64,000 bases of DNA from Eubacteriales bacterium (GTDB lineage: Bacteria > Bacillota > Clostridia > Oscillospirales > JAAYXM01): assembly GCA_045546975.1 (NCBI GenBank), contig JAZQDV010000007.1:73176-137175 (forward strand). The letters are read 5' to 3'. Below are positions 7,848-19,459 of the stretch, piece after piece. Position 1 is the stretch's first letter. Every line of letters begins with the position of its first letter. The notes under the pieces are model-generated. The model had not been told where the DNA came from and made no database searches. It was given only the letters and a program-made list of their open reading frames with translations. The translations under genes were made by a program, and so were the position numbers.

Positions 7848-8006
7848 ATGAAAAAGTATGTATGTGACCTTTGCGGTTGGGAGTATGACGAAGCCATCGG
7901 CGATCCCGACAACGGAATAGAAGCAGGAACAAAATTCGAGGATCTCCCCGATGATTTTGCTTGCCCCCTCTGTGGCGCAGGCAAGGAAAATTTCGTTGAG
8001 GCTTAA
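7848..8006 (+). CDS. Rubredoxin (52 aa; too short for the supplied ORF track)
   Basis: Translation [52 protein letters not shown] has two CxxC pairs. AAGGAGG RBS upstream. Confidence 0.9.
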
Positions 8007-8024
8007 AGGGCAGGTTTCTGCTAC

Positions 8025-8058
8025 GCAGCGCAACCGTAACGGTTGCGCTGCTCTTTTA
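8025..8058 (+). terminator. Intrinsic terminator after rubredoxin; left edge of the accessory island
   Basis: GCAGCGCAACCG-TAA-CGGTTGCGCTGC followed by TCTTTT. Confidence 0.8.
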
Positions 8059-8196
8059 TTTGAAAAAGTGTTTGTTTTTTAACATTTTCATTATATAATG
8101 TGTGTTTTAATATGTGGAATCATTGACAACTTTTGTGGAATATTATTATTTTTATGGTAAAATAATAATATAATATGAAGAAAGGAAGTTGTTTCA

Positions 8197-9039
8197 ATGA
8201 CAAAAGCAATAACACAAGATTTAATTGAAAATTTCAAAAACCATTTAATCGACGAAGAAAAAGCTTCTGCCACTCTGGAAAAATACATCCGCGACATCAA
8301 GGCTTTTTATGTGTGGGTTTCAGGACTTGAAATCAGCAAGCGAACTGTCCTTGACTATAAGGAGTATTTAATTGGTACTTTTGCACCGGCTTCAGTCAAT
8401 TCCATGCTGTCATCTCTCAATGCTTTTTTTCAGTTTAATGACTGGCATGAACTGAAGGTGAAAATGCTGAAAATCCAAAAGCGGATTTTTGTGCAAAAGG
8501 ACAGAGAACTCACAAAGGCAGAATATGTGAGGTTACTCAAAGCCGCAAAAGAAAAAAACAACGAACGACTTTATTTGTTGATGCAAACTATATGCTCAAG
8601 CGGAATACGGGTATCCGAACTAAAATATGTAACGGTTGAATCCTTAAAGTCAAGAAGCGCGACTATTAACAACAAAGGCAAAATGAGAATTGTCCTTTTG
8701 CCCGCAAAGCTTTGCAGTACCCTAATGGAATATGCAAAGAGGCAAAAAATATCAAGCGGGTCCGTCTTTGTTACAAAAACAGGTAACCCGCTTGACAGAA
8801 GCACTATCTGGAAAATGATGAAGGCGCTTTGCATGAGAGCTCAGGTTTCTGAGCGGAAGGTGTTTCCGCATAACCTGAGACACCTTTTCGCGCGTACCTT
8901 TTACACACTCGAAAAAGATATTGTAAGACTTGCAGACATTCTCGGACATTCAAGCGTAAACACTTCACGGATATACACAATGGAAACGGGTGAAATACAC
9001 CGAAAGAAACTTCAAAAACTTGGGCTCTTGCAATTATAA
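8197..9039 (+). CDS. Small tyrosine site-specific recombinase (candidate DNA invertase)
   Basis: 280 aa. N-terminal SAM-like core-binding region. Candidate catalytic residues: R in GIRVSEL, HNLRH, LGH, Y in SRIYT. No arm-binding domain. The stop codon is 2 nt from the left recombination site. Confidence 0.9.
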   Translation: MTKAITQDLIENFKNHLIDEEKASATLEKYIRDIKAFYVWVSGLEISKRTVLDYKEYLIGTFAPASVNSMLSSLNAFFQFNDWHELKVKMLKIQKRIFVQKDRELTKAEYVRLLKAAKEKNNERLYLLMQTICSSGIRVSELKYVTVESLKSRSATINNKGKMRIVLLPAKLCSTLMEYAKRQKISSGSVFVTKTGNPLDRSTIWKMMKALCMRAQVSERKVFPHNLRHLFARTFYTLEKDIVRLADILGHSSVNTSRIYTMETGEIHRKKLQKLGLLQL

Positions 9040-9040
9040 A

Positions 9041-9071
9041 AAGCACCACATAATTGAAATTATGTGGTAAG
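9041..9071. repeat. Left recombination site of the invertible segment (AAGCACCACATAATTGAAATTATGTGGTAAG)
   Basis: Palindromic arms ACCACATAA/TTATGTGGT around the asymmetric core TTGAAA. Its partner at 9304-9334 carries TTTCAA. Confidence 0.8.
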
Positions 9072-9303
9072 ACATAACAAATCAGGCATCAAAGGGAACT
9101 AAATTACCGTATGGCAAACGCAAATTTTTTCAAAAAACGACACAGTATTTAGACCGGTCTTGTTGATTTTGTAAAACCGGTCTGCTCCGTTGTGCCATTT
9201 TTAATGCACATTGATGATTTTTTCATAAAATAATTGCGAATCATTGACAAACCCCCTTCGAGCATATTATAATACGTATGCTCGAATATTATTTTGAAAC
9301 AGA
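9072..9303. other. Invertible DNA segment (inverton) carrying a promoter
   Basis: Bounded by the two 31-bp sites, adjacent to the recombinase gene, and contains the 9244-9273 promoter. Confidence 0.7.
9244..9273 (+). promoter_or_regulatory. Near-consensus sigma-A promoter inside the invertible segment, currently facing tetR and the giant gene
   Basis: TTGACA (9244-9249), 18-nt spacer, TATAAT (9268-9273). The -10 element sits in the loop of the CGAGCATA...TATGCTCG hairpin. Confidence 0.7.
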
Positions 9304-9334
9304 AAGCACCACATAATTTCAATTATGTGGTAAG
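9304..9334. repeat. Right recombination site (AAGCACCACATAATTTCAATTATGTGGTAAG)
   Basis: 29/31 identical to 9041-9071. The only differences turn the central TTGAAA into its reverse complement TTTCAA. Confidence 0.8.
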
Positions 9335-9418
9335 GCTCTTTTTTTTACTTTACACCTGTAACGAGCATTACATAGTATTTATCCGCAGAGATGTGTTGTA
9401 TGAAAGGACTGAATTGAA

Positions 9419-9976
9419 ATGGACAGTTTTGATGAGTTCGACAAAAAGAAAGCAATCATTGCAAAGACCTGGGATTATCTTTTGAAAACCGGCCTCGCGA
9501 ATGCTTCAATAGGAGATTTGTGCAGAGAGACAAAGCTTGCTCAAAGCAGCTTGTATTATTGGTTTGAAAACAAGGACGATATATGGATAAGCGCCGGAAA
9601 GTACGGCACCTCAAAGGTAGTTGACGCACTCCTGGATTTTACTATGAACCACACAAACGATGTCAGCAAGTACTTCGACACTCTTTTAGACGAGGTCGAA
9701 AAGTACAAGTACGAGTTGCGCCTGGCTGTTCAGATTACCACAAGTCCCGTGTTCGGTAATCGTATGCGTGATAAGGCAAAGGATTTCAGGCTGTGGTATG
9801 AGCGCTATGCCGAAAAATTGATGAACATATTTGGCTGTTCCTATCTACAAGCAGAAACCTTTATTTATTCTATCATCGCCTATGTAATTGACTACGCTAT
9901 ATGGGATGATAGAGACAAAACACAAATGCTGCTTGATAATCTTCGCACGAGACTAAGCGACAAGCTCGGCATTTAG
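9419..9976 (+). CDS. TetR/AcrR-family transcriptional regulator
   Basis: 185 aa. N-terminal HTH ASIGDLCRETKLAQSSLYYWFENKDDI. Confidence 0.8.
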   Translation: MDSFDEFDKKKAIIAKTWDYLLKTGLANASIGDLCRETKLAQSSLYYWFENKDDIWISAGKYGTSKVVDALLDFTMNHTNDVSKYFDTLLDEVEKYKYELRLAVQITTSPVFGNRMRDKAKDFRLWYERYAEKLMNIFGCSYLQAETFIYSIIAYVIDYAIWDDRDKTQMLLDNLRTRLSDKLGI

Positions 9977-10003
9977 CAGACTTTTGAGAAAGGACGAAAA
10001 GGA

Positions 10004-10252
10004 TTGATAGAAAATACCTATGGAAGCTGGGAGCTCTTGGCAATAATTTTCGCAGTTCCCCTGCTATTGCTTATATTGCTTGCTTTTGTTGTGAATGTCT
10101 GGCTGCCCTTCATAAGAAACAGACATTACATAAAAAAAGAAATGCACAGATCAGACGGCGGTGAATACAGATACTGGAAGCGAGAGCTTAAACTGCTGTA
10201 TCTGAGGCACATTCCGATAGTCGGATGGTTTTTCCGTGAAAAATACAGATAA
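10004..10252 (+). CDS. Small single-pass membrane protein (TTG start)
   Basis: 82 aa. One clear TM helix (LLAIIFAVPLLLLILLAFVVNVWLPF) and a basic C-terminus. No family recognised. Confidence 0.45.
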   Translation: MIENTYGSWELLAIIFAVPLLLLILLAFVVNVWLPFIRNRHYIKKEMHRSDGGEYRYWKRELKLLYLRHIPIVGWFFREKYR

Positions 10253-10513
10253 ATATTCAGCTTCGGCTGTTTGTTTATATATTAAGGCGGCGAGCAATTT
10301 CCTTACTTTGACAGATGTTGGCAGTAGTTTGAATAAGTACATGCCGCCCGTAAAAAATTGACAACTGCCGCAAGACATCTTGGAGGTGAGGTCATTTATC
10401 CGCACATTATTTTGCAAAAAGAGCAGAGTCAGCAAAATAATATATCCCAGAAACTCTGCCCGAATGCGAAAACGGAATTTTCGCAAAAATCTATTTAAGG
10501 AGGCGTTTTTAAG

Positions 10514-13500
10514 TTGAGACTTAAAAGAATTATGGCTATGTTCCTTTGCTTTGCAATGGTACTTAGCACAATGGGAACAACAGTATTTGCAGAAAATACT
10601 GCTGTTGTTTCAGCCGAGGCAACCGCCGTTTCGGACAATAATCTGTATGTAAATACAGATTACAATTCCGAGACAGAAGGCTACGGCGTAACAAGATTTG
10701 CCAACTATAATGCGGCATATGCATATGCTGTAGCAAACAACACATCTGCAACCATTGTTGTCGAGAAAAACAACAGTATTTCCGGGTTCTGTTTTGATAA
10801 TAACCACAAGAATTATACTAAACTTGCGGTTGTAATTAAAGATGGAGCCACAATGGGTGTATCGCTTTCAAAGTGGGATATGACCTATCCTGTTACTGTA
10901 GAAGCAGGTGGTACTCTCACATGTGCTCGCCCGAAAAATGCCAGTGTCAGCAACATTCACATTAAGAATAAGCTAATCATTGGTACTGAGGGTTCTGATA
11001 AACAAGCATACTGCTATTTCCTAAGCGACAGCTACCAGGATTGTGATATTAGTATCCGTTACAACGGTTCTATTACTGCATACAATGCCGTTATGACCGT
11101 TCAGGATCTTGATGCACAAGGCAGCTTCACTGCAACCGATAGCAATATCACAGTTGACGGTGCATTCGCATCTGCCACTTGGTATGCTACAACGCTTACT
11201 GATTCGGATATGCAGATCAATGGTAACCAGATCAGCGGTGGCCTATCTGATTTTTCCGGTGGAGATAATAATCAACTCGGAAAAGTAACGCTGAACGGTG
11301 ATTCTTCTATTTCGTTTGCTGAAGGCTCAGCAGTTGATGTAGCGGCTACTGTTACTGTAAACGGAAACTCCTACATTACAGCTGACACGCTGACTGTTGA
11401 GAAAAATAAGAAAATTAACGTCAACGGTACATCTTCTGTAAGTGCTCAGACACTTACAAATAACGGTACCATCGCAACTACAAGCGGATCCACGGTAACT
11501 GCCAAAACAGTGAGCGAGGAATCCACCGGCACCGTAACGATTGACGGTGAAGAAGCTGCGTTTGATGAGAGCGGAAACCTTGTTCTCCCCGCTGCACCTG
11601 TCGCAACTGTCGACGGTGTACCTTACACAGAGCTTCAGGCTGCACTCGATGCGGCTGCAGCAGGCGAAGGCAATGTAACAGTTGAGATCCTTGAAAATAT
11701 CAATCTCACAAATGTTGACTGGAATCCCGTAACCGTAAGCGCTCCCAAATATCCTGTTGTTACTGTTAATGGTAACGGCAAGATAATTACAGGTCTGAAT
11801 GATATGCTCTTTGCGGGCACATGGGCTGGTGGCTCCGGCCTTATCATCAACGACCTTACAATTGCGGACTCCGCTATTATTAATGATAAAGACGATACAA
11901 ACGGCAATGTTGGCGTTGGTGCGTTCATTGGATTCCCCCAGGCAAGTGCAACAGTTACTCTCAACAACTGTCATCTTGTTGACTCCCGTGTTGAAGGTGG
12001 TCACTGGACAGGCGGTCTCATAGGTTATGCAGCAGGTTACGCTGGCAATGACGGTCCTGTATTCATGAATTTGACAATCAACGAGTGCTCCGTTACCGGC
12101 TCCACCATTACCGGTAAGGGCTCTGCAGGCGGTATCATCGGTCATGCTACAGGTAATGCTTGGACACAGGTTACCATCACAGATACAACTGTTTCCGGCA
12201 ATACCGTTGCGTCTACAGGTTCTTCTACCAACAAAGCCGGTGCTGTAATCGGTACTATTGGTGCTGCCGGTCAGGCGACAACTGTTAACGGTGTAGAAAA
12301 AACCGGCGGTGTATCCGTTGCAGCAACAGTTAGCGGTAACACTGTAACATCCAGCAGTACAACAATTACAACAATCTACGGTCGTCAGGGCACCGACACA
12401 GGTATGCTCTATGTATCTGGCGGTGAATATGACAATTATCCGATAGAAGAAAATGTTGCTTACGCTGCTCCTATCGAAGGGTATGAAATTGCAGATAATG
12501 GCAATGGTACTTGGGGCATAGCAGAAGAAACTATTCTCTCCGGCGCAGGTACACAGGAAGATCCTTATCTCATTGAAGATATCGATGACTTGACCCTCTT
12601 TAGAGATAACGTAAACAACGGAACAGATTATGACGGTCAGTATGTAAAGTTGATGAGTGATATCGACCTTACAAGCGTCGAAAACTGGATCCCGATTGGT
12701 GCGTATGGTTCACACGCAAACGAGATGACATTCCGCGGTTATTTTGATGGTAACAACAAAACTATCAGCAATCTGACCGTCAATGACACAACAAGCACAG
12801 CTGATATACTTGGCTTGTTCGGTCATATTCATGGCGACGGTATGAAGAATACTTTGGAGCCGTCTGTCAAGAATCTGACATTGACCAATGTAAACATCTC
12901 AAGCACAGACAGCGCTTCAAGAATCGGCGGTCTTGCAGGTAATCCTTACACATGTTATCTCGAGAATGTACATGTCTCAGGAACTATTTCAGGCGGTAAG
13001 TGGACCGGCGGTATCGCAGGTAACTGTTACACAGTATTTGAAAACTGTTCATTTACCGGAACTGTTGACAGTAACAACCAGGCAGGTGGTATTGCCGGCG
13101 CAGGCGATGCTCGTGTATACAACAGCAAGGTCATCGGTGATATTACCGCTACATATTGGGCAGGCGGTATCATCGGTAACGGTCAGGAAGGCGCTTCTGC
13201 TGTAGGCTGTTATGCAAAGGGTACTGTTACTGCTGAAAGCAACTGGTACTTTGGTGTCGGTGGTATTGCCGGTGTTGGCGGACACGGCTACGAAGGCAGT
13301 GTTTATGAAGATAACTACTTCGACGGTGAAGTATATCTCGGAGAAACCAAGGTAAATGCAATCGTTGTCGGTTTTGTAAACGCAGACGGCAACGAAGCAA
13401 TGAATACAGTTGTAGATGGCAACTCATGGAATACTGAATACTATGCAGCAGATACCCCGGTCGTTGTTACAGCTGATGTAACATCAGATATTTCTCCTGA

Positions 13501-16500
13501 GGACTGGGCAGCGTCCGCATCTGAGGAAAAGAGCTCAGTTCGTAACAACAATCTCGTTATGTTGGAAAGCGACATTCAGTATGTAGATGCAACTTCTATG
13601 GATAATGTTACCATTATGAAGTTCTCTGAGGTAACTGAAGAAGAGGTTGAGGTCCAGATCGAGAAAAACAACCTTGTTGCAAAGATAGGTGAAACCGGAT
13701 TCGCATCTCTCGCAGAAGCTATCGTGGCTGCAAATGCTATGACAGGCGATGTCACTGTTGAAATTTACGCTAAGGTTGAATATAACGACGCAACAGCAAG
13801 CCTTACAGGTGCATATGATTCTATCAACTTTGTTGGTAAAACAGAAGATGCTGAAATTTCTATCACCAGAAATGGCTCTAATGGTTACATTTCAGGCGAG
13901 GGCAATGATTGTAAGGTAACATTTACAGACCTTATTCTTTCAAAGCCCGAAGGGCATTACGCAAATGATGCGGGCTTCATGAACATGGCGTTCAGTGTTT
14001 ACAGAGTTGCCTCTGTCAAATATACGAACTGTCAGTTCCCCAACGGTGCATGTGCGGCAGGATGCCCGACTACATATACAAACTGTACTTTTGAAAAATC
14101 TCACGAAAAGTATGCTTTATGGGCATATGGTACAGAGGTTGTAGTTGACGAGTGTACATTCGATGATGACAGAGGTATAAAGATGTATGCTGAGGGCTCT
14201 GCAAAAACAACCGAACTTACAGTTACGAACACGGACTTCTCTAAATTGACATCAAAGCCTGCTATCGTAGCTACACTCGGCCAGAGCATAACTCTTTCAG
14301 GCAATACATATTCTGCCAAGGGTGTTCTCGAGCTTGAGGATAACGGCAGCTCCAACGGTATTGAAATTACTTCCGAGGATGTTGTGACCTGTATCAGTGA
14401 CGCATATCCGGACGGATGCGGTGTTCTTGTTGACGGTGCCATCTATCGTACTGTTGCAGAAGCAGCAGAAGTTGCAGAGGAAGGCAGCACGGTAACACTT
14501 CTTCACAATTCAACAGAAACAGTTGAACTTTCAGAGGGCGTAACCCTTGACAAGAACGGCTTCACTGCTGACGGTGTAACTGTTAAAGTATCTGTTGCCG
14601 CAAAAATCGGTGAGACATATTACGAGACCGTTCAGGCGGCAATCAATGCGGCGCAGAGTGGCGACACCGTTGAAATTCTCCCCGGAGAATATGACCCTAT
14701 CAACATCAGCAGCAAGAATATCACCATTCAGGGTACCGTAGGTGATAACGGTGAATTGCTTACCACCATCAAGGGCGGCAATCCTGCAATTACCGGCCAC
14801 TCTTTTAACGGTACGATTAAGGATCTTAAGATCGTTGATGCATGGAAGGTTATGTATGCAGAACCGGCAGGAAATATAACCGTTGATAATGTTTATGTAA
14901 CCGGTGCTACATACGGTTTCCACCTTGTAGCTTATTCTGAAGGTCTGACATGGACTATCCAGAATAGCTATATGGATTTGCGTTGGGCAAACTCCTTAGG
15001 TGTATACAAAGACGGTGATGCAGAAATCATCATCAAGGGTAACGAATTTGTTTCAACAGATCCGTACTACTCTGATTACGGTGCTCTTCATGTGAATTCG
15101 TTCTTGCCGAATGTAACTGTTGAAGAGAACATTTTCCGTGAAAACGCAAAGATTTACATCGATGCTTCTGTAACGGACACTTCCAACATCAATATTTCCA
15201 AGAACTATCATGCTGACGGTGTTGAAAATGCATTCGCAGATGATACTGACGGCGTGACGGTAAAAATTGATTCGTACTATACCGTAATAGAAGAAGACGG
15301 TACTCTTTCAGGCCTTGTAGAAGTTGTTGATCCCGCCGCAAAAATCGGCGATACAACATACGAAACACTTGCAGCGGCTATCGCGGCTGTCAAGGAAGGC
15401 GAAACAATCACAATGCTTGCTGATACAACTGTTTCAGAGAATGTTACACTTCCTGCAGGCATTACATTTAACGGTAATGGAAAGAAGATCAGCAGAGAAA
15501 ACGGTGCAATTATTTATGCGGGCGGCGAATTGACATTTGAAGGATATACAACTATTGCTAATTTCAATGCCAACGGCAAAACAATTAACATTGGCGAGGG
15601 TGCAACCCTTGAAACAACTGACGGAAGAATGGTTATCGGTCACGGAGCTACATTTAACATTACAGGCTCGATTGCCGATGCGAAAACTGCAGATGTAACA
15701 AATATTACACCTTCCCTCATTGCCCCCGGAGTATCATTCACAGGTGCAGGTGTGAACTTTAATGTAACAAATGCATATGTTAAATTTACAGCTTACTGTT
15801 CTTCAAAAAACAGTAATGCGAGCGGCACATATAACATTAATGTAAATAACAGCATTTGGGAACAGACAGGTTCTTTGGTTTTCTCAGAGCCTACAAACGG
15901 AATGGACCCGACCTTTAACTTCAAAGTTAAAGACAGCGTACTTAACAGCACAAGCCACCTTGTTTTTGCTGTAACAAAGGGCGAAATCGTTTTTGACAAT
16001 TCTGTTGTAAACGAAGGCGTACACAGACAGCTTGAAAACCGCAGCAACCTGACAATTAAGAACGGTTCTGTTGTTTATGCTGCTCACGCAACAAGCTCCA
16101 ACGCAAAGAATCCCGGCACAACTATCGTTGAAAACGCAACTTACATAGCTACCGGTGATTTTAGTGGCTCGGATGTCGGCACAGGCACACTTATTGTTAA
16201 GAAGGGTGCAATTGTGAATATGGGTAAGATTACCAAGGCAAATATCGTTGTTGACGCAACCGATATGGCTGCCGGCGATGTTGTTGGTATCACAGCTAAC
16301 CTGTCCGCCCTTGAAGGTACAATAAGTGTTGTCAATAACAATCTGGACGCTGAAATTGTAGACGGAGCGATTGTTCTTGTTGAAAAACCAGTTGCACAGA
16401 TTGGTGATGAGAAGTTTGCATCGCTCGAAGAGGCATTCAAAGCAGCAACCGATGGATGTACCATCACTTTGATGAGCGACATTACCGTAAGCGAGCTTTG

Positions 16501-18346
16501 GGATTGCCGTTACAACGGTGCAAAGTTCACTGTTCCTGTAACAATCGACGGTAACAACAAGACACTTAAACTCACGGGCGCAGTTGATGACAAGAACTGG
16601 AACACAGTATTCAGATTTGAGGCTGATGCTACAGTCAAGAACCTTACAATCGACGCGAGTGAAGCAACAGGCATCCAGAGAGGTATCTCTGCTAAGTCAA
16701 GCATTACTGTTGAAAACTGCACATTCATAGGTAACGGAACATCAACAAAGCGCGGTGTTATCTTCGGTGAAGGCGCAGGCACAGCACTTTCCGATGTAGT
16801 TGCAACAATTACAAACTCCAAATTCACAAATTGGAGCTATGGCGTTTCTGATAACCAGAGCGGTAAGGATGCAAAGTCTGTTTCTGTTACAGGCTCTACC
16901 TTCATTAACGCAAGCGCACTCTTGAGTGCTTCCGACTCGGTAACATTTACAGGCAATACTGTATCAGACGGTTATGTAAATATCACTTCTTACACCGCAG
17001 CTGATACTGCTACTGTTGTTGCAACAGGCAACAATCTTGTAGGCACTGATGATGAAATTACTGTAAATCCCGAAAACATAACCTCAGATGATTCATTCAT
17101 TACTCCTGTTGCCAAGATTGGCTCTAAGTATTATGAGACCTTAGATAAAGCAATCAGCAAGGCAGCAGTTGGTGACACAGTTGTTCTTTTAACTGATGTT
17201 GAGCTTTCGGATACAATTACAATTCCTACTGACAAGAAGATTACTCTTGACTTAAGCAGCAAGACAATCACAGGTACAGATAATACTGAAAAGAATTTCA
17301 GTCTTATCGATAACCGCGGTGATCTTACCATTACAGGAAACGGTACTATGACTCTTACTGCTACCGTCAACTCCGGATGGAACCGTTACTCTGCAGTTCT
17401 TGCAAACAACCCCGGCGGTAAGCTTACCATTGAAAACGGTACGTTTGAGCACCTCGGTGGCACCGATATGGCTTACGGTATTGACAACCTTACAAACGGC
17501 AAGGGAACCTATGCTGAAACCATAATTAACGGCGGTACAATCAAGTCCACTTACCGTGGTATCCGTCAGTTCCTCAACGGTATTGAAGCACAGAACATTC
17601 TCACAGTTAACGGCGGTACTGTTGAAGGCACTAACAAGTCTATCTGGATGCAGGATCCGAACAAGAACGCAAACACAGGTACACTTACTGTTACTGATGG
17701 CGCTACCTTGAACGGCGACGTGTATCTGACTGTAACAGAAGGTTCTACCGAATGGCCTGTTGAAGTAAGCATTGCTAAATCAGCAGTAAACGGACAGGTT
17801 CTTACTAATGGAAACGAGCCTGCAGGATATGAGCTGGTTGAAGAAAACGGAACCTACGGCGTAATAGAAAAAGAAATAGTAACTCCGTTCAAGGACGCTC
17901 CGTTGTTCTTGGCAGGACTTCCGGATGAAGTTATTGACGGTGTAACATACCACCCCGTTTATATGGCAACCTCTATTGATTCATTGAATTATAGAAAGGT
18001 CGGATTTGATTACACCTTCTCAATTTTCGATACTGAAACAGGCGAGGTTACTTTCTCGGTACCGTATACAACCGAAACAAGTGAGGTATACTCTTCTATC
18101 AGCGATGCTAATACAACATATACAGTTGACAGCATTGGCGGAAACGGTGAATACTTGTTTATGAATAAGTTGCTGTTCCACGCAGAACATTATCACAACA
18201 ATAACACAAAGGTTACCATCACACCGTACGCTATTGATACGAACGGAAACAAAATCACCGGCTGGACAATTGATATGACAAATGAATTCTATAAGTCACT
18301 TCAGTCTGGTGATGTAAAACAGGATATGTTCAAGGAGGGAAACTAA
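10514..18346 (+). CDS. Giant secreted surface protein (2610 aa) with GLUG-like motif blocks and multiple parallel beta-helix-type modules
   Basis: AGGAGG RBS 10 nt before the TTG start. Signal peptide MRLKRIMAMFLCFAMVLSTMGTTVFA|ENT. Two blocks of GG[LI][IA]G motifs. At least 6 recurrences of the module cap V-A-[KQ]-I-G-x-x-x-[YF]-x-[ST]-L-x-x-A. No LPXTG, SLH or dockerin seen. Confidence 0.9.
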   Translation: MRLKRIMAMFLCFAMVLSTMGTTVFAENTAVVSAEATAVSDNNLYVNTDYNSETEGYGVTRFANYNAAYAYAVANNTSATIVVEKNNSISGFCFDNNHKNYTKLAVVIKDGATMGVSLSKWDMTYPVTVEAGGTLTCARPKNASVSNIHIKNKLIIGTEGSDKQAYCYFLSDSYQDCDISIRYNGSITAYNAVMTVQDLDAQGSFTATDSNITVDGAFASATWYATTLTDSDMQINGNQISGGLSDFSGGDNNQLGKVTLNGDSSISFAEGSAVDVAATVTVNGNSYITADTLTVEKNKKINVNGTSSVSAQTLTNNGTIATTSGSTVTAKTVSEESTGTVTIDGEEAAFDESGNLVLPAAPVATVDGVPYTELQAALDAAAAGEGNVTVEILENINLTNVDWNPVTVSAPKYPVVTVNGNGKIITGLNDMLFAGTWAGGSGLIINDLTIADSAIINDKDDTNGNVGVGAFIGFPQASATVTLNNCHLVDSRVEGGHWTGGLIGYAAGYAGNDGPVFMNLTINECSVTGSTITGKGSAGGIIGHATGNAWTQVTITDTTVSGNTVASTGSSTNKAGAVIGTIGAAGQATTVNGVEKTGGVSVAATVSGNTVTSSSTTITTIYGRQGTDTGMLYVSGGEYDNYPIEENVAYAAPIEGYEIADNGNGTWGIAEETILSGAGTQEDPYLIEDIDDLTLFRDNVNNGTDYDGQYVKLMSDIDLTSVENWIPIGAYGSHANEMTFRGYFDGNNKTISNLTVNDTTSTADILGLFGHIHGDGMKNTLEPSVKNLTLTNVNISSTDSASRIGGLAGNPYTCYLENVHVSGTISGGKWTGGIAGNCYTVFENCSFTGTVDSNNQAGGIAGAGDARVYNSKVIGDITATYWAGGIIGNGQEGASAVGCYAKGTVTAESNWYFGVGGIAGVGGHGYEGSVYEDNYFDGEVYLGETKVNAIVVGFVNADGNEAMNTVVDGNSWNTEYYAADTPVVVTADVTSDISPEDWAASASEEKSSVRNNNLVMLESDIQYVDATSMDNVTIMKFSEVTEEEVEVQIEKNNLVAKIGETGFASLAEAIVAANAMTGDVTVEIYAKVEYNDATASLTGAYDSINFVGKTEDAEISITRNGSNGYISGEGNDCKVTFTDLILSKPEGHYANDAGFMNMAFSVYRVASVKYTNCQFPNGACAAGCPTTYTNCTFEKSHEKYALWAYGTEVVVDECTFDDDRGIKMYAEGSAKTTELTVTNTDFSKLTSKPAIVATLGQSITLSGNTYSAKGVLELEDNGSSNGIEITSEDVVTCISDAYPDGCGVLVDGAIYRTVAEAAEVAEEGSTVTLLHNSTETVELSEGVTLDKNGFTADGVTVKVSVAAKIGETYYETVQAAINAAQSGDTVEILPGEYDPINISSKNITIQGTVGDNGELLTTIKGGNPAITGHSFNGTIKDLKIVDAWKVMYAEPAGNITVDNVYVTGATYGFHLVAYSEGLTWTIQNSYMDLRWANSLGVYKDGDAEIIIKGNEFVSTDPYYSDYGALHVNSFLPNVTVEENIFRENAKIYIDASVTDTSNINISKNYHADGVENAFADDTDGVTVKIDSYYTVIEEDGTLSGLVEVVDPAAKIGDTTYETLAAAIAAVKEGETITMLADTTVSENVTLPAGITFNGNGKKISRENGAIIYAGGELTFEGYTTIANFNANGKTINIGEGATLETTDGRMVIGHGATFNITGSIADAKTADVTNITPSLIAPGVSFTGAGVNFNVTNAYVKFTAYCSSKNSNASGTYNINVNNSIWEQTGSLVFSEPTNGMDPTFNFKVKDSVLNSTSHLVFAVTKGEIVFDNSVVNEGVHRQLENRSNLTIKNGSVVYAAHATSSNAKNPGTTIVENATYIATGDFSGSDVGTGTLIVKKGAIVNMGKITKANIVVDATDMAAGDVVGITANLSALEGTISVVNNNLDAEIVDGAIVLVEKPVAQIGDEKFASLEEAFKAATDGCTITLMSDITVSELWDCRYNGAKFTVPVTIDGNNKTLKLTGAVDDKNWNTVFRFEADATVKNLTIDASEATGIQRGISAKSSITVENCTFIGNGTSTKRGVIFGEGAGTALSDVVATITNSKFTNWSYGVSDNQSGKDAKSVSVTGSTFINASALLSASDSVTFTGNTVSDGYVNITSYTAADTATVVATGNNLVGTDDEITVNPENITSDDSFITPVAKIGSKYYETLDKAISKAAVGDTVVLLTDVELSDTITIPTDKKITLDLSSKTITGTDNTEKNFSLIDNRGDLTITGNGTMTLTATVNSGWNRYSAVLANNPGGKLTIENGTFEHLGGTDMAYGIDNLTNGKGTYAETIINGGTIKSTYRGIRQFLNGIEAQNILTVNGGTVEGTNKSIWMQDPNKNANTGTLTVTDGATLNGDVYLTVTEGSTEWPVEVSIAKSAVNGQVLTNGNEPAGYELVEENGTYGVIEKEIVTPFKDAPLFLAGLPDEVIDGVTYHPVYMATSIDSLNYRKVGFDYTFSIFDTETGEVTFSVPYTTETSEVYSSISDANTTYTVDSIGGNGEYLFMNKLLFHAEHYHNNNTKVTITPYAIDTNGNKITGWTIDMTNEFYKSLQSGDVKQDMFKEGN

Positions 18347-18589: not shown

Positions 18590-19459
18590 GTGAGAAATTT
18601 CATTAAAACTATATGTTTGTTGTTAGCAACACTTAATTTGTTTTCCATTACTGCTTTTGCAGAGCTGGAGGTAGGCAATAATTTTGACCTTGGCAATTCA
18701 ACCGGCGTTATTGTTCCGCTTCCGAGCGATGATAAAGATGACGGACAGCAGGGTTCTTCATCCAATAGTAACAACAACGGAAATGGCAACGGCGGCAATA
18801 ACAGCGTTGGTGGCGGTGGCGGTTCTTACATACCGGCTACAAAACCGGACAAGGAGACCGAAACACAACAAGAATCAACGCAAACAGAAAATAATATCAA
18901 AACTTTTTCCGATATAAAACAAAACGATTGGTTTTACAGTGATGTAATGTTTGTTTCTAATAATAAGATTATGACAGGTACGAGCGAGAGTGAATTTTCA
19001 CCGAACACCACACTTAATCGTGCCATGATGATTACAATTTTACATAGGATTGACGGAGACAGTTCCACTTATAAAAAAGATATATTTAATGATGTTGAAA
19101 AAAACAGCTGGTACGAAAATGCTGTAAATTGGGGATATGAAAATAAAATCGTTACAGGCACAAGTGCGAATACCTTTGCTCCCAAAAACAATTTAACCCG
19201 TGAGCAGCTTTGCGTCATGCTTTACAATTATACAAAACATATTGGAGTTAAAACTGAATTTGCCGACACATCCTCTTTCTCTGACAACAACACAGTTTCA
19301 GATTGGGCAAAAGATGCCGTTTCCTGGGCAGTGCAGGAGAAGATTGTGACAGGAAAAGGAAACAATACACTTGCTCCCAAGGACAGTGCCACAAGAGCGG
19401 AAGCAGCAGCGGTTATAAGACGGTACACAGAAAAATTTGTAGAAATCGAGGAAAAATAA
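18590..19459 (+). CDS. Secreted protein with three C-terminal SLH (S-layer homology) domains
   Basis: GTG start. Signal peptide ...LFSITAFA|ELEV. Low-complexity N/G/S linker. Three SLH repeats (FSDI..DWFYSDV, FNDV..SWYENAVNW, FSDN..SDWAKDAVSW). Confidence 0.88.
   Translation: MRNFIKTICLLLATLNLFSITAFAELEVGNNFDLGNSTGVIVPLPSDDKDDGQQGSSSNSNNNGNGNGGNNSVGGGGGSYIPATKPDKETETQQESTQTENNIKTFSDIKQNDWFYSDVMFVSNNKIMTGTSESEFSPNTTLNRAMMITILHRIDGDSSTYKKDIFNDVEKNSWYENAVNWGYENKIVTGTSANTFAPKNNLTREQLCVMLYNYTKHIGVKTEFADTSSFSDNNTVSDWAKDAVSWAVQEKIVTGKGNNTLAPKDSATRAEAAAVIRRYTEKFVEIEEK

Follow-up and report, generated by a model that had tools for sequence, protein, structure and literature searches.

The window analysed here, a stretch of 64,000 nucleotides (nt; 64 kb) of contig JAZQDV010000007.1 from an uncultured gut Clostridium, contains a gene for a Xer-like tyrosine recombinase that is directly followed by two short palindromic sites enclosing a promoter-like sequence. 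Behind the second site lie co-oriented genes for a TetR-like regulator, a small hydrophobic protein, a giant secreted protein of 2610 amino acids (aa) and a protein with S-layer homology (SLH) domains (Table 1). An earlier note on this DNA had described the arrangement as an invertible-promoter switch. With high confidence we regard the locus as a phase-variation switch of the invertible-promoter type that uses dif-like sites and exerts ON/OFF control over the operon of the TetR-like and giant proteins. Judged from its sequence, the switch most likely toggles a regulator together with a giant cell-surface protein.

Table 1. Features of the switch locus, in positions of the window
Feature	Position	Strand	Remarks
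Conserved regulatory region upstream of the recombinase gene	8117..8171	+	extended -35 GAATCATTGACAA at 8117-8129; palindrome ATATTATTAT-N12-ATAATAATAT at 8140-8171
Xer-like tyrosine recombinase, 280 aa	8197..9039	+	core-binding SAM-like N-domain (PF02899) and catalytic Phage_integrase domain (PF00589; Pfam E=3e-24)
Left site	9041..9071		dif-like: arm ACCACATAA at 9045-9053, 6-bp centre TTGAAA at 9054-9059, arm TTATGTGGT at 9060-9068
Family-invariant core of the left site	9048-9065		ACATAAT-TGAA-ATTATGT; crossover mapped to the core from L001 versus L002
Interior of the invertible segment	9072..9303		ON in the window: promoter faces the TetR-like gene
Conserved inverted repeat	9151..9183	+	AGACCGGTC...ACCGGTCT, then a T-rich stretch; upstream of the promoter; stem nearly invariant in 52 sequences
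Predicted sigma-70-type promoter	9244..9273	+	TTGACA-18-TATAAT, 12/12; extended -35 AATCATTGACAAAC from 9239
Right site	9304..9334		core ACATAAT-TTCA-ATTATGT at 9311-9328; 6-bp centre TTTCAA at 9317-9322, the reverse complement of the left centre
T8 run	9339..9346	+	just past the right site; with the OFF-state palindrome it would form an intrinsic terminator before the operon
Operator-like palindrome	9357..9372		TGTAACG-AG-CATTACA (TGTAACGAGCATTACA); outside the segment, 62 nt before the TetR-like start codon
TetR-like helix-turn-helix regulator, 185 aa	9419..9976	+	first gene past the switch; TetR_N E=2.4e-4, 21.3 bits against a cutoff of 24
Small protein with hydrophobic segment, 82 aa	10004..10252	+	open reading frame (ORF); many loci have one of about 80 aa at this place
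Giant secreted protein, 2610 aa	10514..18346	+	N-terminal signal peptide and repetitive beta-helix-like GGxxG modules (from the translation); main cargo
Protein with three SLH domains	18590..19459	+	PF00395 E=1e-34, three stretches; same direction as the giant gene

Sites, promoter and recombinase

The earlier note had claimed two 31-base-pair (bp) sites with a flipped centre, a consensus promoter between them that points into tetR and the giant-gene operon, no comparable promoter between 9334 and 10514, and a recombinase of 280 aa ending 2 nt before the left site, and all of these claims were borne out. The left site (AAGCACCACATAATTGAAATTATGTGGTAAG) and the right site (AAGCACCACATAATTTCAATTATGTGGTAAG), read in the same direction, agree at 29 of 31 positions, and the two differing positions turn TTGAAA into TTTCAA. 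Positions 9045-9068 and 9308-9331 form an inverted repeat of 24 nt with 100% complementarity. When up to 3 mismatches are allowed, ACCACATAATTNNAATTATGTGGT occurs exactly twice in the 64 kb, and a chance origin of the site pair was rejected, as 100 dinucleotide-preserving shuffles gave 0 matches.

The inverted arms around an asymmetric overlap, which had also been proposed, were found as well, but their limits had to be redrawn: in the window the arms extend over 11 bp (ACCACATAATT / AATTATGTGGT) and leave a centre of 2 nt, GA in the left and TC in the right site, and across the family described below 4 variable nt lie within a 6-bp T-NNNN-A centre. Judged by eye, the sites have the layout of dif, with inner CATAA / TTATG arms and a 6-bp centre (ACCACATAA-TTGAAA-TTATGTGGT as compared to GGTGCGCATAA-TGTATA-TTATGTTAAAT for dif of E. 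coli; PMC2731167).

The promoter inside the segment is the sole 12/12 match to the consensus between 7800 and 10700, and nothing between 9334 and 10514 exceeds 9/12. It is also the most conserved part of the interior in an alignment of 52 sequences from about 50 species, in which the -35 region is at least 95% conserved; the conserved elements are an extended -35 (AAATCATTGACAAAC) and a TATAAT-like -10, spaced by 17 nt in the family and by 18 in the window. Across loci the downstream genes always run in the direction of the ON promoter. At the sequence level the locus therefore has the properties of an invertible promoter, that is a 12/12 promoter inside the segment and co-oriented genes behind it, and transcription of these genes would depend on the orientation of the segment.

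Further elements of the interior are less easily assigned to a function. The conserved inverted repeat at 9151-9183 may be a terminator insulating against read-through from the recombinase gene, or else a protein-binding site; the terminator scanner did not flag this repeat because its loop is longer than 8 nt. The -10 lies between the halves of a perfect inverted repeat of 10 bp (TTCGAGCATA...TATGCTCGAA, 9257-9286) that is specific to the window strain; as an operator of the family it was rejected, no such repeat being present in 44 of the 54 relatives with a detectable -10. Likewise, a small ORF on the minus strand within the segment (9149-9322), predicted as a gene of 60 aa in two related contigs (L001 and L004), was considered as a directionality factor and rejected as spurious: among 76 segments only 12 keep the frame open over 60 codons or more, and its translations show no conservation.

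The recombinase consists of the core-binding and catalytic domains only, and the left site begins 2 nt past the last base of its stop codon. The catalytic residues R138, K162, H225, R228, H251 and Y260 are all kept, according to motif positions and structure-sequence alignments. The protein aligns over its full length to archaeal XerA (4a8e, E=3e-19) and to XerD (1a0p), and XerA and XerD are its best NCBIfam matches as well, both under the cutoff. In detail, it scored 131.4 bits against an equivalog cutoff of 220 for XerA, 119.4 against 329.6 for XerD and 104.9 against 335 for XerC. The FimB/FimE models (NCBIfam PRK09870 and PRK09871) gave 30.9 and 22.4 bits with cutoffs of 221 and 222, and no Bacteroides-type invertase model was among the NCBIfam matches. 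More than 8000 close homologues were found, nearly all of about 280 aa. We read the protein as a Xer-derived single enzyme that would work on palindromic dif-like sites; two like arms per site are what one would expect if one recombinase acts as a homotetramer. Inversion is probably catalysed by this adjacent recombinase (8197-9039), a view indirectly supported by its intact catalytic residues, by the constant adjacency of its gene and by the covariation of the site centres described below.

The leader of the recombinase gene (8090-8196 in the window) is conserved at the nucleotide level in the collected loci (L001-L094) although the recombinase proteins are only about 75% identical across species. 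It contains a promoter-like TTGACA-18-TATTTT (10/12), and its 13-mer GAATCATTGACAA is identical to that in the invertible promoter; in 59 of 94 loci the recombinase gene is preceded by ATCATTGACAA with no more than 1 mismatch. The conservation of the leader and the ATCATTGACAA that it has in common with the invertible promoter suggest that recombinase expression is regulated, possibly by feedback from the output of the switch.

Natural inversion and distribution of the family

A protein that is 98% identical to the window recombinase (P0002) is encoded on four contigs from four samples (L001-L004). All four encode the same recombinase protein, and the segment has the orientation of the window in L001 and L004 and the reverse one in L002 and L003. 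The flanks of L001 and L002 are collinear and differ by a few single-nucleotide polymorphisms (SNPs), whereas the stretch from offset 8 to 288 past the stop codon is reverse-complemented with 2 mismatches; the crossover must therefore lie within the 18-bp core that both sites have in common, ACATAATTGAAATTATGT (ACATAATT-GA-AATTATGT). The earlier expectation that inverted sites lead to inversion and not to excision is therefore directly confirmed by these contigs.

The two orientations differ in the make-up of the sites. In L002, which is OFF, the left site is a perfect palindrome (AAAGCACCACATAATT-GA-AATTATGTGGTGCTTT) and the right site reads GTCTTGCAACATAATT-TC-AATTATGTTGCAAGAC, and in L001, which is ON, each site is a hybrid that combines the two types of arm. 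Flipping the window sites in silico lengthens their arms to 15 and 13 bp. The direct instead of inverted arrangement of the outer nt (AAGC...TAAG), which the earlier note had listed as an oddity, is real and is explained by the hybrid-site state of the window.

A second species, with a 78% identical recombinase (P0075) in another genomic neighbourhood, shows the same layout. Among its contigs listed, 8 of 10 are OFF and the 2 that are ON end inside the segment. Contigs with 0 differences over 2910 nt of the upstream flank show opposite orientations, and inversion must therefore be much faster than point mutation. An assembly ambiguity is unlikely because the shared repeat (18-24 bp) is shorter than the k-mers of the assembler (k=141 in the contig names). 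The k-mer used in Logan assemblies is k=31.

The survey of the family comprised 80 species-level genomes, mostly of uncultured Clostridia from ruminant and human guts. In these loci a site of the form ACATAAT-NNNN-ATTATGT lies 5-24 nt past the stop codon of the recombinase gene, which always adjoins the switch, and the partner site usually follows at a distance of about 262 bp; in a sub-class the sites are 239-242 bp apart. According to the conserved promoter motif, 38 species-level loci are ON and 38 are OFF. In another 10 loci fewer than two sites could be detected, mostly on contigs that end in or just past the first one. In 73 of 74 non-redundant loci the 4 nt at the centre of one outer site are the exact reverse complement of those at the other; 18 different centres occur, of which none is palindromic, while the arms are nearly invariant across the family. 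This covariation would be imposed by a tyrosine recombinase that requires identical asymmetric overlaps.

Several variants of the layout were observed. In about 30 species a third site is located 32-33 bp from the left or the right site inside a conserved unit (..ATTATGTGGTAAGGCGATTTCCACATAAT..), both sides and both promoter states (ON and OFF) being represented (L005, L006, L008, L017, L019, L020, L022, L030, L033-L036, L040, L041, L044, L048, L050, L055-L059, L067, L069, L070, L073, L076, L081, L084). Such a pattern would be expected if any inverted pair of the three sites recombines, giving four states. In one species the number of copies of this unit on a contig is 0, 1 or 2, and some of the third-site contigs may be assembly chimeras of mixed populations. 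L049 (JAZNGA010000043.1) has a single site past the recombinase stop codon, with a right-type centre (TTCG), and its TetR-like gene starts 117 nt after that stop codon, so that the promoter segment appears to be deleted; it may represent a locked, promoter-less variant. Two metagenome-assembled genomes (MAGs) contain two cassettes each with the same CGAA centre, namely L037 and L044 in JAZQVQ01 and L050 and L054 in JAZUCE01, and these could cross-recombine and cause large rearrangements unless this is prevented. Finally, cassettes are present in MAGs assigned to distant lineages (L086, Candidatus Gastranaerophilaceae; L050 and L054, Faecalimonas; L089, Aphodoplasma), which points to either horizontal transfer or binning errors.

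Probable terminators, probable operator and downstream genes

The length of the palindromes depends on the orientation of the segment. Perfect arms are longer in OFF in 36 of the 45 loci with two sites, equal in 8 and shorter in 1. Correspondingly, at the right junction the median folding energy drops from -6.3 kcal/mol in ON to -20.3 kcal/mol in OFF (n=41, p~2e-7), and at the left junction, read on the minus strand, from -6.7 to -12.6 kcal/mol (n=41, p~3e-7; both by Wilcoxon tests in which related loci are treated as independent). In 29 of 41 loci the right core is followed by a run of 6 or more T. For the window, the hairpin at the right junction was calculated at -12.9 kcal/mol in ON as compared to -20.4 kcal/mol in OFF. 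The terminator scanner flagged both sites in the natural OFF contig L002 (an 18-bp stem with T7 and a 16-bp stem) and neither of them in the natural ON contig L001. From these observations we infer that the OFF state probably also means terminators at both borders of the segment, as proposed for cwpV of Clostridioides difficile.

Past the switch, the usual gene order of the family is a TetR-like gene, a protein of about 80 aa and giant ORFs. A TetR-like homologue (70-82% identical) directly follows the switch in most loci, a few loci being without such a gene, and giant ORFs of 650 to more than 1750 aa are likewise found in most of them. The window regulator has, in addition to its TetR_N match, weak NCBIfam matches to the TetR-type regulators FadR, AcuR and MtrR. 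In 54 of the 64 loci with a TetR-like gene, an operator-like palindrome of the form TGTAA[T/C]G-NN-C[A/G]TTACA is placed 26-30 nt past the last site, with about 60 nt separating it from the start codon of that gene, and it is missing at loci where this gene is absent or only 31-43% identical. The copy in the window is unique in the 64 kb (0.03 expected). The TetR-like protein is likely to bind the palindrome at 9357-9372, and the co-occurrence of palindrome and gene suggests that it binds just outside the switch and provides a second layer of control.

The 82-aa protein gave no Pfam or NCBIfam match and is probably membrane-bound because of its hydrophobic segment. For the 2610-aa protein there was no Pfam, NCBIfam or PDB sequence match despite clear internal repeats. 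The SLH ORF begins 244 nt past the 2610-aa ORF; its product could be a detached anchoring partner of the giant protein, or the ORF could be a remnant of the former C-terminus of that protein.

A comparison of the window (7947-17512) with L002 revealed a mosaic of identities, with 97% at the nucleotide level in the recombinase gene, 84% in the invertible segment and 67% in the TetR-like region (55% for the protein). Parts of the giant gene are 93-97% identical, and the region of about 10600-13700 does not align. This mosaic divergence points to recombination at the switch, or to an exchange of cargo there, and to diversifying selection acting on the surface protein.

Proposed mechanism, alternatives and known switches

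We propose that the 280-aa recombinase would bind the two palindromic dif-like sites (..ACATAA, 6-bp centre, TTATGT..). The asymmetry of TTGAAA and TTTCAA makes the sites inverted, so that strand exchange within the centre would flip about 263 bp. In the ON state, which is that of the window, the promoter at 9244-9273 would read out through the right site, predicted to be a weak hybrid hairpin in this state, and the transcript would pass the operator-like palindrome and continue into the genes for the TetR-like protein, the small membrane protein, the 2610-aa protein and the SLH protein. In the OFF state the promoter would face the 3' end of the recombinase gene and both sites would be rebuilt as long perfect palindromes with a T-run. 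The terminator on the right would then block read-through into the operon and the one on the left would stop the transcript of the outward-facing promoter. The TetR-like protein at its operator probably adds signal-dependent or autoregulatory control in ON cells.

Several points weigh against this mechanism or limit it. The window strain was seen only in the ON state, and its exact recombinase (as well as P0001, which is 100% identical) is present on no indexed contig, so that the evidence for inversion comes from the strain with the 98% identical recombinase and from other species. The left site of the window species (GCACCACATAATTGAAATTATGT) had no match in a JGI metagenome scan. The hairpins of the window are not weak in the ON state (-12.9 and -12.1 kcal/mol), so that the contrast between ON and OFF in the predicted terminators is smaller than in most relatives. 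Furthermore, a weak promoter-like TTTACA-N18-TAGTAT (9/12) is fixed outside the segment at 9349-9378 and overlaps the operator, for which reason OFF may not mean silent, and the gap of 260 bp before the giant gene could harbour another promoter.

This fixed site is the basis of the most serious alternative, in which the inversion is real but the output comes from a TetR-controlled promoter at 9349-9378, and the switch toggles a terminator before it, in a cwpV-like manner, or antisense transcription into the recombinase gene. The site holds the operator in its spacer, the classic TetR arrangement, the right site has a strong orientation-dependent hairpin with a T-run, and cwpV is a precedent for control by a terminator only (PMC2784873). 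However, the match of 9/12 compares with 12/12 for the segment promoter, which is the most conserved interior element, and a terminator located upstream of the fixed promoter would not silence it. In addition, loci without a TetR-like gene or operator still keep the promoter segment directly before giant genes, and we consider the alternative improbable.

Even less is to be said for two explanations that dispense with a switch. The palindromes might be ordinary terminators or repeated extragenic palindromes, with the orientation differences due either to homologous recombination, through inversions that are rare and fixed, or to faulty assembly; each site does fold as a hairpin, and the scanner finds both sites of the window terminator-like on the minus strand. 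Opposite orientations at 0 SNPs in 2.9 kb of flank and the ratio of 38:38 across species nevertheless make this very improbable, as does the fact that the centres covary in 73 of 74 loci with invariant arms, which termination alone would not demand. Moreover, a dedicated recombinase is always adjacent, and the 18-24-bp repeat is shorter than the assembler k-mers, which makes an assembly error unlikely. Least probable of all, and hardly credible in our view, is that the sites are true dif sites for the resolution of chromosome dimers, or serve a mobile element exploiting Xer for its integration and excision, with the promoter DNA being incidental. The dif-like arms and 6-bp centre and the XerA and XerD families as best matches of the recombinase would agree with this, but inverted sites 263 bp apart give inversion, which is the outcome observed, and not resolution or excision, the scores are far below the XerA, XerC and XerD equivalog cutoffs, and some genomes have two cassettes (L037 and L044; L050 and L054).

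The invertible-promoter switch that we favour can be compared with several known systems. The fimS switch of E. coli with FimB/FimE likewise has its promoter on a short invertible segment (about 300 bp) between short inverted repeats, an adjacent tyrosine recombinase and a surface structure as output. It differs in its two recombinases, instead of one here, and in its 9-bp inverted repeats with flanking half-sites, instead of dif-like palindromes of 18-24 bp. Furthermore, the recombinase gene described here is upstream of the switch and co-oriented with the cargo, and by model score it is not of the FimB/FimE type.

The earlier note had pointed to a resemblance to the RecV-dependent switches of C. 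difficile, which holds for the function but not for the arrangement, as the recombinase is unlinked there and the cwpV promoter lies outside the switch (PMC2784873). The RecV switches (cwpV, flgB, cmrRST) also belong to Clostridia, use a tyrosine recombinase from the XerC/XerD family on a segment of about 150-200 bp and include large cell-wall proteins among their outputs. In the OFF orientation of cwpV an intrinsic terminator is formed that involves the repeat (PMC2784873), which parallels the orientation-dependent hairpin and T-run at the window switch. RecV is, however, encoded far from its switches and has several targets with repeats that lack a consensus (PMC5386303), whereas here the recombinase is adjacent (its stop codon and the first site being separated by 5-24 nt in almost every locus), the palindromic sites are near-invariant and the promoter is inside the segment. 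This distinction is one of arrangement and not of protein sequence, and as it refers to the 64 kb of the window, further targets in trans are possible.

With the single-recombinase Xer/dif systems (XerA, XerH, XerS) the window switch shares a recombinase closest to XerA/XerD, the CATAA / TTATG arms and the 6-bp centre. Those systems, however, have a single site per replicon that serves resolution, whereas here two inverted sites flank a promoter and lead to inversion, and some genomes have several cassettes. The invertible promoters of Bacteroides, which depend on Mpi serine or Tsr tyrosine invertases, are similar in that they control surface structures of gut commensals and in some cases adjoin a tyrosine recombinase, but they differ in phylum, promoter consensus and repeat motifs. 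Taken together, the window system combines a fimS-like promoter flip with a probable cwpV-like terminator toggle and falls outside the FimB/FimE type, the true Xer proteins and the RecV arrangement.

A possible earlier encounter with the family is "inverton group 139" of a survey of hCom2, a defined gut community (Microbiome 2025, PMC11892184). According to the passages of that paper considered here, 32 of its 33 invertons are from Clostridia, in 17 strains, with a size of about 255-257 bp and repeats of 14-26 bp; the group is linked to the tyrosine "invertase group 35", with a recombinase within 5 kb of nearly every member, and its orientation shifts across passages. Compared by description and not by motif, these sizes match the sub-class with 239-242-bp spacing, and the taxon and the linkage to a recombinase are consistent as well, so that the window family may be identical to this group. 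TetR has 0 occurrences in the main text of that paper, and its relevant passages do not mention a mechanism, a likeness to dif or terminator toggling.

Apart from this survey, no description of the window family was found in the literature on invertons of Clostridia and Firmicutes, dif-like inversion switches or RecV/cwpV, nor did we find a paper describing the dif likeness, the palindrome toggling or the link between TetR and operator. The window switch is of a well-known kind, its family being widespread but uncharacterised, and the design features at the level of the family would, if confirmed experimentally, make it a distinct variant. More tentatively, and with somewhat more doubt than conviction, we suggest that gut Clostridia share a widespread and self-contained cassette for phase variation, of which the locus is one copy and which derives from a domesticated Xer/dif module. 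This cassette would have a single Xer-derived recombinase, near-invariant palindromic dif-like sites with 4-nt centres that set the polarity, a terminator toggle formed by rebuilding both sites in one orientation and dissolving them in the other, a TetR/operator gate just outside the switch and, in about 30 species, a third site 33 bp away with four states, and it would drive hypervariable giant surface proteins and be spread over several families of Clostridia.

The simple, near-invariant sites and the small co-encoded recombinase should make heterologous testing easy and might yield a compact genetic switch, for which the 4-nt centre suggests a simple route to orthogonal variants. In addition, the signature of ACATAAT-N4-ATTATGT pairs past a 280-aa recombinase gene permits switches to be annotated in MAGs without the use of reads. 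For Bacteroides, E. coli and C. difficile, phase variation through inverted promoters has been documented well; to our knowledge, documentation is poor for the uncultured Clostridia that are dominant in the guts of ruminants and humans. As the members of the family adjoin giant secreted or S-layer-associated proteins, they probably shape surface heterogeneity, evasion of phages and of the immune system, and adhesion in these bacteria.

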